This document shows, one piece after another, positions 1,747 through 52,464 of a stretch of 64,000 nt of DNA. The stretch lies in contig CM000155.2 of NCBI GenBank assembly GCA_000004695.1, positions 1,248,001 to 1,312,000 on the forward strand. Reading direction: 5' to 3'. A program made the translations under genes and the position numbers. Numbering within the stretch: position 1 is the stretch's first letter; the number at the start of each line of letters is the position of its first letter. Below the pieces are notes generated by a model, which saw nothing but the letters and a program-made list of their open reading frames with translations, had not been told where the DNA came from and made no database searches. The stretch is from Dictyostelium discoideum (taxonomy: Eukaryota).

Positions 1747-2520
1747 TATTTTTATTTTTATTTTTATTTTTATTTTTATTTTTATTTTTACACCAAAAAC
1801 TTATTTACAATTTTACAACCACACATTTAAAAATCATGATTTTTGTGTGGTTTGGGTAATATCTTAAAACTTTAAATGAAAAATGGTTCTTTTCACAAAA
1901 GACCAGAAACTTGTAAAGAGTTTAATTATTAATTTTAAATTATAAAAAAAAAAATTCAATTCATATAATAATATATTAAGAAATCAGGAAAAAAAAATAA
2001 AATAAAAAAAATTAGATATTAATTAATTTTTTTTATACATTTTATCTTATTACAGTTTTTTTTTTTTTTTATTAATAAATAACTTAGTATTGTTGTTGTT
2101 GTTGTTGTTGTTGTTATTGTTGGTGGTATTAGCTGATGTGGTTTGATGATACTAAAATATTTTCAACACCAAGTATTAAATCTTTTGAATTGATAATGGC
2201 AATATAATAAGAACTTTTGGCAGTGGCAGTGGCGATTGGCTACTATACTGGGAATCTTAAATGTTAAATCTTATCTTGAAATATGTGGTATACTAGTTTT
2301 TGGTACTTCTGTTGCTAATAAAAGTGAAATAATTGGAACCAAGGAAATTATCATCACCACATTAGAACCCATGAGTTCTATTGCCATAATCAACATCAAA
2401 ATCCACACAACATTGCAATTCTACTATAGACAACGGCCCTTATCAACATTATTGATTATACAATAGTTCTGGTTTGATTTTTTAACTTTAATTCAACCAG
2501 ACCTTATTATTTTATTAGCA

Positions 2521-2537
2521 GGAATCGAACATGCGAT
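2521..2537 (-). promoter_or_regulatory. External B box (exB) downstream of tRNA-Pro gene
   Basis: Minus-strand ATCGCATGTTCGATTCC contains the B-box core GTTCGATTCC, 25-40 nt beyond the tRNA 3' end. This is the position of the extra B box typical of Dictyostelium tRNA genes. The same 17-mer recurs downstream of the second tRNA-Pro copy at 51953..51969. Confidence 0.55.
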
Positions 2538-2561
2538 CTTTCAAAAATTGTTTTAAAAGAT

Positions 2562-2632
2562 GGGGAGATCCGAGAATCGAACTCAGGACGCTACCACCCA
2601 AAGGTAGCATTATACCACTTAACTAATCTCCC
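2562..2632 (-). tRNA. tRNA-Pro (anticodon UGG)
   Basis: Minus strand GGGAGATTAGTTAAGTGGTATAATGCTACCTTTGGGTGGTAGCGTCCTGAGTTCGATTCTCGGATCTCCCC. Acceptor stem GGGAGAT/ATCTCCC, A box TAGTTAAGTGG, anticodon stem CTACC/GGTAG with loop TTTGGGT (anticodon TGG), B box GGTTCGATTCC-like GAGTTCGATTCTC. 71 nt, no intron, discriminator C. Confidence 0.85.
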
Positions 2633-8246: not shown

Positions 8247-9020
8247 TTAATTTGATTTATCATTATTTTGATGATCTTGATTATTACTATTATTATTTTT
8301 ATTTTTATTATTATTTTTATTATTATTATTATCTTCATCTTCTTCATCATCAGTACTACCATCACTTTTATATTTTGATTTTTTATCATTTTTATTATTA
8401 ATATCATCATCTTTTTCATCATCATCTTCATCCATTTTTTCTTTTTCATCATCATTATCATCATCATCTTTTTCAAGTGTACCAGTTTGATCTAATGGTA
8501 ATGATTCATCGGCTACACATTTAGTACATAAACAATTGAATAGATAACCTTCCAATAATTTCTCCCTTCTCTTATTTAATGGACTAGTTGTATCTATATA
8601 AGAGATTGTTAATTCATCACCCTCTTTAACATTTTTTAATAATGTACATTCAACTTCTAAAGTATTATTGACTACCCAATAATTTACATTTGGATCACAA
8701 CTATGATTAAAGAATGAATTTCTAACATAAACACCACAACCTCTTGATTCACCTGATGATCCATCTCTTGGTCTACCTTGAATATAAAATGCATTACATC
8801 TAAATTTTTTCAAAAAAATAAAAAATAAAAAATAAAATTAATATATAAATTATAAATTTCTTAAGAAATTCTAAAATTAAATTATTCATACCTATTTCTT
8901 AATAATATATTTAATAAATCGAATTCATCTTCAATTTTACCAAGTTTTGCAGATAATTTTACAACATATTTACATATCCAGTACGAAAGACTTTCTTTTA
9001 AAGATTCATTATAATTTTCC

Positions 9021-50253: not shown

Positions 50254-50286
<33 letters not shown>

Positions 50287-50598
50287 CTGATTAATCTTAG
50301 TTTATCCATTATATTTTAATAATGAATTATAATTTTTGAAATGTAAAGAATTCATTCCTTTTTTTAGTTTGAATTTTCTAATAAAGAATTTAATTTTAAA
50401 ATGTAGTGCAGTTATTATTACTATTATCAATTTTTAAAAAAGATATCCAGTTTTTAAAAATGTTAGTATTTAAAATTAAATAATAAGATTAGTAATTGAA
50501 TTTAAATTATTTGTTCCAGGAAATCATTCGGATCTTTTGAATGAGTTAATTTTAAATGTTTTGCTTTTTTTATATATTCTAGAGTAGCTTGTACGATT

Positions 50599-50603
<5 letters not shown>

Positions 50604-50637
<34 letters not shown>

Positions 50638-51300
50638 TGGATTAACAAGATTGATATATGTCCATCTGTGTTAATACGAGTTTTTATTTAATATTTATTT
50701 ATAGGCTTATCATTTAAGCTGAAGGGTTATTTTAATCATATGAATTGATCAAAAGATATAATATTTGGGAGAGATGATTCTGGAATACAATAGTAATTAG
50801 CTGTTGTTTTTCTTAGCTTGATCGTTGAGGTGAGAAGGATCTTAGGATCTTTGAAATTATTATGGTCTTTTGCTGATAAGTTTTTCAGATCTTTTGCTTT
50901 TTTGATGTATTCTAGAGTGGCCAATTTGTGCCATTTCTTTAGAAGGGAGCTGTATGATAGTGATTCATTTGTTAAAGGATCTTCACTGTATATTTGATTG
51001 CAAATCCAAATCCAAATGTTGTGGAGGATAAGGGCCATTAGGTTTTTATATGCGAATGATCTGGTTAGATCATAGTCTATTGCTTTATAGTTCCATTCGA
51101 AGTATTCTTTGTGGAATCTGTGGTTGGCGTAATCTGCATTCACTTCTTGATCTTTTTTGGCTGTCGGTGATAATTTTGGAGTTATTCTATTAATGAAATT
51201 GTTATTTTGCCTAATTCTTGTATGGTGCCAGTTTTTACCTTTGCCTGTGGTAATATAGATGAAATTTTTGAGTTTATTTATTTTTATAAATTGTTTTGTT
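50604..51300 (-). mobile_element. TRE-type (tRNA gene-targeted) non-LTR retrotransposon, 3' portion, copy 1; probably TRE3 family given location downstream of a tRNA gene
   Basis: Poly-T(29) at 50604..50632 is the oligo(A) tail on the minus strand. About 100 nt of 3' UTR follows. A minus-strand ORF is open from the N gap at 51300 down to stop 50736 (...GKGKNWHHTRIRQNNNFINRITPKLSPTAKKDQEVNADYANHRFHKEYFEWNYKAIDYDLTRSFAYKNLMALILHNIWIWICNQIYSEDPLT...SFDQFI*), i.e. an ORF2 C-terminus. The element is cut off by the assembly gap. Positions 50640..50990 are more than 98% identical to 51495..51815. Confidence 0.6.
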
Positions 51301-51400
51301 NNNNNNNNNNNNNNNNNNNNNNNNNNNNNNNNNNNNNNNNNNNNNNNNNNNNNNNNNNNNNNNNNNNNNNNNNNNNNNNNNNNNNNNNNNNNNNNNNNNN
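51301..51400. other. Assembly gap (100 N)
   Basis: Run of exactly 100 N between two copies of the same repeat family. Typical unknown-size scaffold gap caused by repeat collapse. Confidence 0.97.
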
Positions 51401-51453
51401 GATTGGTTAAAATTGACCGAGATTAAGGATAGAAAAGGATGAATTACTTTTCA

Positions 51454-51466
51454 CGTGTATTTTTTT
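51454..51466 (+). repeat. Target-site duplication (left copy) TTTTCACGTGTAT of TRE copy 2
   Basis: The 13-mer TTTTCACGTGTAT sits immediately before the poly-T tail at 51467. It is repeated at 51878..51890 at the other end of the element. Confidence 0.5.
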
Positions 51467-51877
51467 TTTTTTTTTTTTAATATTAGATTAACAAGATTGA
51501 TATATGTCCATCTGTGTTAATACGAGTTTTATTTAATATTTATTTAAAGGCTTATCATTTAAGCTGAAGGGTTATTTTAATCATATGAATTGATCAAAAG
51601 ATATAATATTTGGGAGAGATGATTCTGGAATACAATAGTAATTAGCTGTTGTTTTTCTTAGCTTGATCGTTGAGGTGAGAAGGATCTTAGGATCTTTGAA
51701 ATTATTATGGTCTTTTGCTGATAAGTTTTTCAGATCTTTTGCTTTTTTGATGTATTCTAGAGTGGCCAATTTGTGCCATTTCTTTAGAAGGGAGCTGTAT
51801 GATAGTGATTCATCTGTTAAAGGATCACGATCTACAGATCTAACTTACCAAATCGCCGATTTAATAGGATTTTTCAC
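51467..51877 (-). mobile_element. 5'-truncated TRE3-type non-LTR retrotransposon copy 2 (poly(A) tail, 3' UTR, last about 60 codons of ORF2)
   Basis: Poly-T(15) at 51467..51481 is the minus-strand oligo(A). Positions 51495..51815 are near-identical to copy 1. The ORF fragment is MATLEYIKKAKDLKNLSAKDHNNFKDPKILLTSTIKLRKTTANYYCIPESSLPNIISFDQFI*. The upper 60 nt (51816..51877) are not shared with copy 1. Flanked by a 13-bp direct repeat. Its near end lies about 105 nt downstream of tRNA-Pro 3' end (51996), the classic TRE3 integration distance. Confidence 0.55.
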
Positions 51878-51890
51878 GTGTATCTTGTAT
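51878..51890 (+). repeat. Target-site duplication (right copy) TTTTCACGTGTAT
   Basis: Exact repeat of 51454..51466. Confidence 0.5.
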
Positions 51891-51952
51891 CCTCTTGATC
51901 GCGGTGCGGTTTTCGACTATTAAACTTTTAATATACTATTAAACATTCAATG

Positions 51953-51969
51953 GGAATCGAACATGCGAT
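51953..51969 (-). promoter_or_regulatory. External B box (exB) downstream of second tRNA-Pro gene
   Basis: GGAATCGAACATGCGAT, identical to 2521..2537, about 27 nt beyond the tRNA 3' end. Confidence 0.55.
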
Positions 51970-51995
51970 ATATTAAAATTTCTTATAAAACGTAT

Positions 51996-52066
51996 GGGGA
52001 GATCCGAGAATCGAACTCAGGACGCTACCACCCAAAGGTAGCATTATACCACTTAACTAATCTCCC
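51996..52066 (-). tRNA. tRNA-Pro (anticodon UGG), second identical copy
   Basis: 71/71 identical to the copy at 2562..2632. Same A box, B box and anticodon loop TTTGGGT. The immediate 5' flank (CTCCCATTTTGATG..TTGATCTTTTTTTGA) is also shared. Confidence 0.85.
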
Positions 52067-52189: not shown

Positions 52190-52216
52190 AAATTATACCA
52201 CTTAAATAACCTCCCT
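52190..52216 (-). pseudogene. tRNA 5'-fragment remnant (degenerate copy of the tRNA-Pro 5' end) about 125 nt upstream of the tRNA gene
   Basis: Plus-strand ATTATACCACTTAAATAACCTCCC versus the tRNA gene ATTATACCACTTAACTAATCTCCC (21/24). The nearby short repeats ATTGAAGTTTTAT and GATCGAAGTTTTAT suggest duplication footprints from past element insertions and excisions. Confidence 0.4.
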
Positions 52217-52464
52217 TTTCAATTAGATCGAAGTTTTATCCCAAAAAATCCAAGCTCGTCGAATCCGACAAAAAAAAAAAAAACTATTTCTATTTAGACA
52301 TAAAAAACCAATTTAATTCAATTATCCTTTAATTATAATAATTAAGAAAATAATAAAATACAGATATTGAATTTTTTTTAATAAATATGTTTCTTATTTT
52401 ATTTAAAATTATTTTTTTTTTTTTAAAAAAAAAAAATATAAGCTATTATTATTATTAATATTAT

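Follow-up and report, generated by a model that had tools for sequence, protein, structure and literature searches.

At a proline tRNA gene of Dictyostelium discoideum, within the 64-kb window analysed here (the window is the whole stretch of DNA), a fragment of a mobile element is flanked on both sides by the same 13 bases. This raises the question of what the fragment is, how it came to lie next to the tRNA gene, and whether the 13 bases are the host sequence present before integration, as a preliminary description of this DNA had assumed. The window is AT-rich, and its protein matches all come from D. discoideum or near relatives. The neighbouring gene in the window is that for sulfide:quinone oxidoreductase, DDB_G0292250 in strain AX4.

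The tRNA-Pro gene and the 410-bp insert

The tRNA gene, the insert (copy A) and the two copies of the 13-bp repeat, which is treated below as a target-site duplication (TSD), are found in the following order along the tRNA strand.

51996–52066, minus strand: tRNA-Pro(UGG), the targeting landmark (ARAGORN)
51987–51990, minus strand: TTTT RNA polymerase III terminator, 6 nt past the tRNA 3′ end (direct sequence reading)
51953–51962, minus strand: external B box GTTCGATTCC, 34–43 nt past tRNA-Pro (direct sequence reading)
51871–51883, minus strand: tRNA-proximal copy of the TSD
51826–51870, plus strand: inverted piece at the 5′ end of copy A, corresponding to sense 5′UTR nt ~116–159 (BLAST, alignment)
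51479–51826, minus strand: direct 3′ part of copy A, consisting of the end of ORF2 and the 3′UTR
51461–51478, minus strand: A18 tail of copy A, directly adjoining the distal 13-mer
51448–51460, minus strand: tRNA-distal copy of the TSD

The tRNA-Pro(UGG) sequence is duplicated identically at positions 2562–2632 of the window and is unchanged at the orthologous loci L004–L008. The external B box lies 54 nt from the internal B box (52007–52016) and is kept at tRNA-Pro in strains L006, L007 and L008. The proximal 13-mer begins 112 nt from the tRNA 3′ end, the first base of copy A is at 125 nt, and copy A has the orientation of tRNA-Pro. TRE3 elements integrate 40–150 bp downstream of a tRNA gene in the same transcriptional orientation (PMC5911963), and the earlier view that the geometry is typical of TRE3 therefore holds in its side, its orientation and its distance. 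The figure of about 105 nt first given for that distance has to be replaced by 112 nt for the repeat and 125 nt for the insert. The insert had also been placed just past the external B box; it is indeed beyond the B box, but the proximal 13-mer begins 69 nt further on, so that the wording is loose.

The direct part of copy A represents the last 347 nt of the element and contains the last 81 codons of ORF2 (51584–51826), the stop codon (51581–51583) and a 102-nt 3′UTR. It shows 99.4% identity to copy B and 98.9% to copy C, two further copies at this locus. Colinear identity with copies B and C ends at 51826, where the inverted piece, antisense relative to the remainder of copy A, takes over. 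BLAST gives 93% identity over 44 nt between this piece and L005 positions 8525–8567, and the piece diverges over its last 9 nt. The earlier identification of a TRE3-type fragment of about 410 bp, made up of the ORF2 end, the 3′UTR and an oligo(A) tail, agrees with the family properties given below and with a length of exactly 410 bp. Its description as a plain 5′ truncation does not hold: as judged from the alignments, copy A is more than that, since its 5′-most 45 nt are an inverted segment of the 5′UTR.

Assignment to TRE3

The element shows the TRE3 properties of structure, coding content and position. The hallmarks of non-LTR retrotransposons are present: an oligo(A) end and a TSD are seen both in copy A (A18, 13 bp) and in copy B (a short run of A, GTTTAATAGT), and LTRs are absent. 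The 5′ truncation is variable, with differing internal starts in copy C and in copies from L001, L003 and L010. Open reading frames and domains were checked on copy B, a full-length element with 99.4% identity to copy A over the sequence common to both. Copy B is 5,224 nt long, with a 169-nt 5′UTR and an ORF1 of 417 aa; its ORF2 is in the −1 frame and starts at a TAATG overlap of the ORF1 stop with the ORF2 ATG. ORF2 matches RVT_1 at residues 524–771 (E = 6e-34) and the whole Exo_endo_phos profile at residues 8–253 (E = 1e-3; the 19.3 bits are below the Pfam cut-off of 24.5). A CCHC motif, CPLCKEDMSKDPYGHLFFSC, is read by eye near the C-terminus of P0001. TRE3 elements are described as having APE-RT-ZF domains, TRE3-A with a −1 frameshift (PMC5911963).

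Membership in TRE3 is set by position downstream of a tRNA gene, and such elements are present at 61% of the tRNA genes in the genome (PMC5006619). Independent copies at other tRNA genes show 98–99% identity and are always in the tRNA orientation. The starts after the tRNA 3′ end are 55, 81, 85, ~114, ~124 and 125 nt (six tRNA genes), all in the tRNA orientation.

L001: copy start 55 nt after tRNA-Leu
L003: copy start ~114 nt after an intron-containing tRNA with a GTA anticodon
L010: copy start ~124 nt after tRNA-Ala
L009: copy start 85 nt after a tRNA that is cut off at the L009 start
Window/L011: copy starts after tRNA-Pro, copy B at 81 nt and copy A at 125 nt

A related subfamily with ~67% protein identity and a YADD reverse transcriptase is found downstream of tRNA-Lys. 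Upstream of the tRNA-Ala of L010 there is, in addition, another element in head-to-head arrangement, which is the TRE5 geometry. Against the two comparators available, the copy B ORF2 is only slightly nearer to a tRNA-downstream element from a different species (L004, 33.6% identity) than to the TRE5-like, tRNA-upstream element of L010 (30.5%).

No TRE name occurs among the protein matches, as all Dictyostelium entries are titled ‘hypothetical protein’. The family name TRE3 is accordingly given from the defining properties of the element rather than from a reference alignment. The subfamily is probably TRE3-A; the evidence is circumstantial and consists of length and abundance. With the 3′ end of the other copies, copy B has a canonical-equivalent length of 5,228 nt. 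The published consensus lengths are 5,229 bp for TRE3-A, 5,279 bp for TRE3-B and 4,734 bp for TRE3-C, with TRE3-D partial, and TRE3-A is the most numerous (PMC5006619, Table 1). Of the three identity groups into which the protein matches fall, that with at least 94% identity contains the most gene models.

The likeness to TRE3-A (formerly Tdd-3) thus extends to the oligo(A) end, the TSDs, the 5′ truncation, and two open reading frames of which ORF2, in the −1 frame, carries endonuclease, reverse transcriptase and CCHC motifs, as well as to the full-length equivalent and to the standing of the subgroup as the most abundant among the matches. The difference is that copy A is situated inside the 5′UTR of another TRE3, not beside it, and carries an inverted 5′UTR piece. 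TRE5-A (DRE), a related member of the L1 clade in this genome, also targets tRNA genes and has its ORF2 domains in the same order; TRE5 insertions, however, lie ~50 bp upstream of the tRNA gene and run opposite to it (PMC5911963), whereas the family of copies A and B is always found downstream and in the orientation of the tRNA. Skipper-2 (DGLT-P) is likewise found downstream of tRNA genes in dictyostelids (PMC5006619), but it belongs to the LTR elements and has an integrase and a chromodomain, while the tRNA-Pro insert has no LTRs and an oligo(A) end. Copy A is an ordinary, non-functional fragment of a well-described retrotransposon family.

The 13-bp repeat and the layers of the locus

The 13-mer TTTTCACGTGTAT has two exact matches in the 64-kb window, the two positions listed above, and no further match in the window with one mismatch allowed. 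The expectation by chance is 0.13, and two or more matches were obtained in 1 of 100 shuffles. The 13-mers are separated by exactly 410 bp (51461–51870) and adjoin the A18 tail at one side and the 5′ junction at the other. The 13-mer behaves as a true TSD, and the earlier claim that it flanks both ends of the fragment as such is confirmed by these two exact copies adjoining the insert. The arrangement proposed earlier is real, but the true repeats lie 6–7 nt to the left of the coordinates that it implied. Removal of 51467..51890 (424 nt), which had been suggested as a way to restore the empty site, fails; a frame of 423 nt is needed, e.g. 51461..51883.

What was present at the site before copy A is partly hidden in the reference by an assembly gap. 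The orthologous locus was retrieved by means of the protein of the neighbouring gene from a gapless D. discoideum assembly, GCA_054883475.1 (loci L005 and L011). Identity to the window is 100% against 53300–51401 on the tRNA side and 99.5% against 51300–49000 on the far side. Window position 51401 corresponds to L011 position 12500, and window position 51300 to L011 position 18426. The further layers of the locus are as follows.

51916–51925, minus strand: upstream TSD of copy B, GTTTAATAGT; the downstream copy is inside the gap, at L011 17634–17643
51871–51914, minus strand: first 44 nt of the copy B 5′UTR, severed from the remainder by copy A and matching the L009 5′ ends
51401–51447, minus strand: continuation of the copy B 5′UTR, nt 45–91, running into the gap, with 100% identity to L005/L011
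51301–51400: assembly gap of 100 N, in reality 5,925 bp, in which copy B continues through ORF1 and ORF2 to its 3′ end and the 5′ portion of copy C follows
50601–51300, minus strand: 3′ 700 nt of copy C, including an A32 tail (50601–50632)
50254–50600, minus strand: oldest layer, a divergent TRE3-like 3′-end fragment with its own oligo(A) (P0003 match at 50520–50588)

On the tRNA strand the array thus reads tRNA-Pro, TTTT, external B box, AT-rich spacer, 44 nt of 5′UTR, and copy A between the 13-mers, followed by the remainder of copy B, GTTTAATAGT, copy C, the old fragment and a kinase gene. The tRNA-Pro locus is a stack of four TRE3-type insertions, all in the same orientation. Copy B has its 5′ end 81 nt from tRNA-Pro. 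Its TSD is ambiguous, as the 10-mer GTTTAATAGT recurs 19 nt further upstream in the spacer; the TSD could alternatively be 19 bp with one mismatch, together with 11 filler nucleotides. Copy C is 5′-truncated, has a total length of ~1.46 kb and belongs to the same family as copies A and B. The segment 50601–51300 was also considered as the 3′ end of the full-length copy B, and this was rejected on the gapless locus, where a separate copy C of 1.46 kb is found. A tblastn search of the window with ORF1, ORF2 and the C-termini of the other subfamily showed no TRE copies elsewhere in it.

The 5′ end of the element family has the form GAAAA(AA)CCG(C/T)ACCGCGATCAAGAGG, and the 13-mer occupies nt 32–44. 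On the tRNA strand the proximal copy reads ATACACGTGAAAA, which is nt 32–44 of the copy B 5′UTR, and the same sequence is present once, and contiguous, in two other full-length copies, both in L009. When copy A and one repeat are removed in silico, the result is a contiguous 5′UTR containing the 41-nt sequence GATCAAGAGGATACAAGATACACGTGAAAAGTAATTCATCC; nt 45–91 of the copy B 5′UTR then run on as they do in the L009 5′UTRs. The 41-nt sequence is also found in an independent L009 copy, the 5′UTR stretch being contiguous in two L009 copies. The arrangement at tRNA-Pro is identical in the independent gapless assembly of the same lineage (L005/L011, 100% over 1,900 nt), which shows that copy A and its repeats are not an assembly artefact.

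By this alignment evidence the 13-bp TSD is TRE3 5′UTR sequence and not host DNA. Since the 13-mer represents nt 32–44 of an element 5′UTR, the duplication records the pre-integration sequence of another TRE3, and the earlier proposal that it gives the pre-integration sequence of the host fails on the contiguity of the 13-mer and its flanks in the two L009 copies. The preliminary description had held that a 13-mer belonging to the element itself would speak against an integration of this kind. In one sense the 13-mer does belong to the element, as it is 5′UTR; the 5′UTR is that of the resident TRE3.

Comparison with other strains, also suggested earlier, is informative in part. In strains L006, L007 and L008 all three copies (A, B and C) are missing, and the sequence that flanks copy A is missing too, because it belongs to copy B. 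Among the strains compared, none has copy B without copy A, and hence there is no direct empty site. The absence of the three copies from these strains, together with mutual identities of 98.9–99.4%, indicates that copies A, B and C are young. The old fragment is also present in the strains without them and, being common to divergent strains, is probably the earliest insertion.

Origin of the insert and spacing at the tRNA gene

The anatomy of copy A, its TSD, its nesting in a TRE3 5′UTR, the domains of the family and the geometry downstream of a tRNA gene are direct observations. With them in hand, it is very probable that 51461–51870 is a dead 410-bp TRE3 copy, most likely TRE3-A, that was inserted by target-primed reverse transcription into the 5′UTR of copy B at tRNA-Pro. 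A full-length copy B would already have been resident at the site, starting 81 nt past the tRNA. Copy A would have followed, integrating by target-primed reverse transcription in the orientation of tRNA-Pro(UGG), presumably through recognition of the transcription complex bound at the tRNA gene. Staggered cuts starting 112 nt downstream of the tRNA 3′ end would give the 13-bp TSD, and the entry of copy A into the copy B 5′UTR would duplicate nt 32–44 of the latter. The order of events appears to be the old fragment first, copy C adjoining it, copy B upstream of copy C with the TSD GTTTAATAGT, and copy A last. The newest insertion would thus be nearest to the tRNA, the order outward being copy A (inside copy B), copy B, copy C and the old fragment. 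A parallel is found in L009, where a copy ending in oligo(A) has been inserted behind a 36-nt 5′UTR stub, and the repeat ACAAGATAC then leads into the remainder of the resident 5′UTR. The nested TSD of L009 begins 113 nt from the tRNA, and the 5′ end of the resident is at 85 nt.

The locus may be read in other ways. Copies A and B could stand in tandem without a TSD, copy A being an internally deleted or rearranged element with its own 5′ end and copy B an element truncated at nt 32, in which case the 13-mer is merely 5′UTR sequence in which both elements overlap. In favour of this, tandem arrangement is typical of TREs (PMC5391098), the 13-mer belongs to the element, internally deleted family members such as P0010 and P0020 exist, and an L009 copy starts at ~nt 27 directly after the oligo(A) of another copy. 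However, copy A is then left without a TSD of its own, as the flanks ...TTTAATAGTC and ATACACG... mismatch, while nesting provides TSDs for both copy A (13/13) and copy B (GTTTAATAGT) and the two 5′UTR halves rejoin into an intact 5′UTR. The L009 case does not help the tandem either, because the 36-nt stub has no tail and is not an element alone, and its repeat recurs after the oligo(A). We consider such a tandem improbable. Still less probability, very little indeed, is left for a simple 5′-truncated TRE3 in unique host DNA with the 13-mer as host pre-integration sequence. Such an insertion would account for the oligo(A) tail, the TSD and the spacing from the tRNA, but both flanks of copy A are TRE3 5′UTR and are missing from strains without copy B, the L009 copies carry the 13-mer within their own 5′UTRs, and the 5′-most 45 nt of copy A are not colinear with ORF2.

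The inverted piece, and perhaps all of copy A, could also have been made after integration by DNA rearrangement between TRE3s (ectopic recombination, gene conversion or fold-back repair), the 45 nt being copied from the copy B 5′UTR 83 nt downstream. The locus is rich in near-identical repeats, the source of the inverted piece in copy B sits only 83 nt beyond the distal TSD, and the piece shares with copy B a variant C in AGATCTAAC, where the L009 copies have A. On the other hand, copy B has a private G (ACGATGTAC) at a position where the inverted piece, like the L009 copies, has C, and the last 9 nt of the piece diverge. An exact TSD adjoining an oligo(A) is moreover the signature of target-primed reverse transcription and is unpredicted by recombination. 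Rearrangement is therefore held to be highly improbable as the source.

Under nested insertion, the inverted piece most likely originated by twin priming, in which the second target strand would prime on the 5′UTR of the donor RNA while the first cDNA covers only the 3′ end. In LINE-1 elements, twin priming leaves the 5′ part inverted and adjoining the upstream TSD. The layout of copy A is of this kind: the segment beside its upstream TSD is inverted, the 3′ segment behind it is direct and bears the tail, as in LINE-1 inversions with their poly(A), and the inverted segment derives from RNA 5′ of the direct one. L1 inversions usually join two segments that almost adjoin in the RNA. In copy A, in contrast, ~4.7 kb are missing between the inverted part, of only 45 nt, and the direct part, the microhomology at the junction is a single G (1 nt), and no complement of the priming end GAAAA is found at the expected site in the RNA; these three points argue against twin priming. 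No report of twin priming in Dictyostelium TREs was found in the literature. The variant pattern does not decide between twin priming and copying from the copy B 5′UTR.

The inverted piece has a further consequence for secondary structure. Folding of a read-through transcript gives a stem of ~44 bp with −115 kcal/mol, against −67 kcal/mol for shuffles (z = −9). The long stem is a direct result of pairing of the inverted 5′UTR piece with the 5′UTR of copy B and is not in itself a sign of function. A small-RNA pathway has been reported to act on TRE3-A (PMC6161686), and in this model the stem formed by copies A and B could feed it.

The nested insertions at tRNA-Pro and L009 are both shallow, ~30–45 nt deep. 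At these two unrelated tRNA genes the second arrivals cut 112 and 113 nt past the tRNA 3′ end, which is 31 and 28 nt inside the resident 5′UTRs, the residents having their 5′ ends at 81 and 85 nt. A rule of position counted from the tRNA gene would produce shallow nesting of this kind at both loci, and the near-equal spacing suggests that the distance may be measured precisely from the tRNA gene. That TRE3-A measures its integration point from the tRNA gene whatever DNA is there, taken together with the ideas on self-limitation and on the hairpin, is a speculative proposal that we regard as unlikely.

For annotation, two consequences follow. The 13-bp duplication is unfit for use as the host ‘empty site’ sequence, and the gap of 100 N conceals 5.9 kb of retrotransposon, so that the reference by itself gives an incomplete picture of the locus. 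Copy A is one more TRE3 at a tRNA gene; this is ordinary biology, and its importance is mostly for annotation. The leads of note are the recurring position of the second insertion at ~112 nt and the possible twin priming. Were the spacing to hold generally, every further arrival would cut the resident element off from the first ~30–45 nt of its 5′UTR, and the TRE3-A family could be self-limiting at occupied tRNA genes.

The assembly gap and the ends of the resident element

The 100-N gap at window positions 51301-51400 corresponds to 5,925 bp in the gapless assembly of the same lineage (GCA_054883475.1). It hides nearly all of one full-length TRE3, ORF1 and ORF2 included (copy B), together with the 5′ half of another TRE3 copy, 1.46 kb in length.

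At the gapless locus (L011 11957-11985 and 17634-17652), the spacer upstream of copy B holds two occurrences of GTTTAATAGT, offset by 19 nt, and a single one follows the tail of copy B. Because the sequence is doubled in the spacer and single after the tail, the target-site duplication (TSD) of copy B can be read in two ways: as 10 bp, or as 19 bp with a single mismatch together with 11 filler nucleotides. Copy B (L011 17620-17633) stops 9 nt before the 3′ end that other copies have, and its A tail is only about 6 nt long (...CAATCTTGTTAAAAAAA).

TRE elements at other tRNA genes

Another tRNA gene (L009 130-3090) provides a second case in which an inserted TRE3 copy sits within the 5′UTR of a resident full-length TRE3. 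The repeat of this nested insertion, ACAAGATAC, begins 113 nt past the tRNA 3′ end, compared with 112 nt in the window.

At a further locus (L010 1400-7600), a single tRNA-Ala gene is flanked upstream by a TRE5-like element, head-to-head with the tRNA and carrying an ORF1 of 462 aa and an ORF2 of 1188 aa, and by a TRE3 fragment about 124 nt downstream. In L003 (9905-9970), an intron-containing tRNA has a TRE3 fragment beyond its external B box, with a 25-nt direct repeat (ATTATTAAAGCTCATCAATAATAA) in the interval between the two.

tRNA-Pro loci in the window and in other strains

The window contains a second tRNA-Pro(UGG) gene:

2562-2632, minus strand, tRNA-Pro(UGG), sequence-identical to the first, with its own external B box

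A stretch of about 450 nt starts about 55 nt downstream of it (region 2056-2632, minus strand), flanked at either end by TAATAAG and closed by A16 at about 2056-2071. This A16-ended stretch may be another truncated retroelement; it matched none of the TRE3 ORFs used in the analysis.

Upstream of the intact tRNA-Pro gene, degenerate copies of the tRNA-Pro 5′ half and its upstream leader are repeated:

Window 52192-52237, one copy
L006 7690-7880 (another strain), several copies

Downstream of tRNA-Pro, the orthologous loci of other strains carry short and divergent TRE3-like 3′ ends, in sets that differ by strain:

L006 8000-8470, TRE3-like 3′ ends
L007 10655-11170, TRE3-like 3′ ends, one segment inverted
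L008 11655-12010, TRE3-like 3′ ends

The tRNA-Pro site has received repeated, independent insertions.
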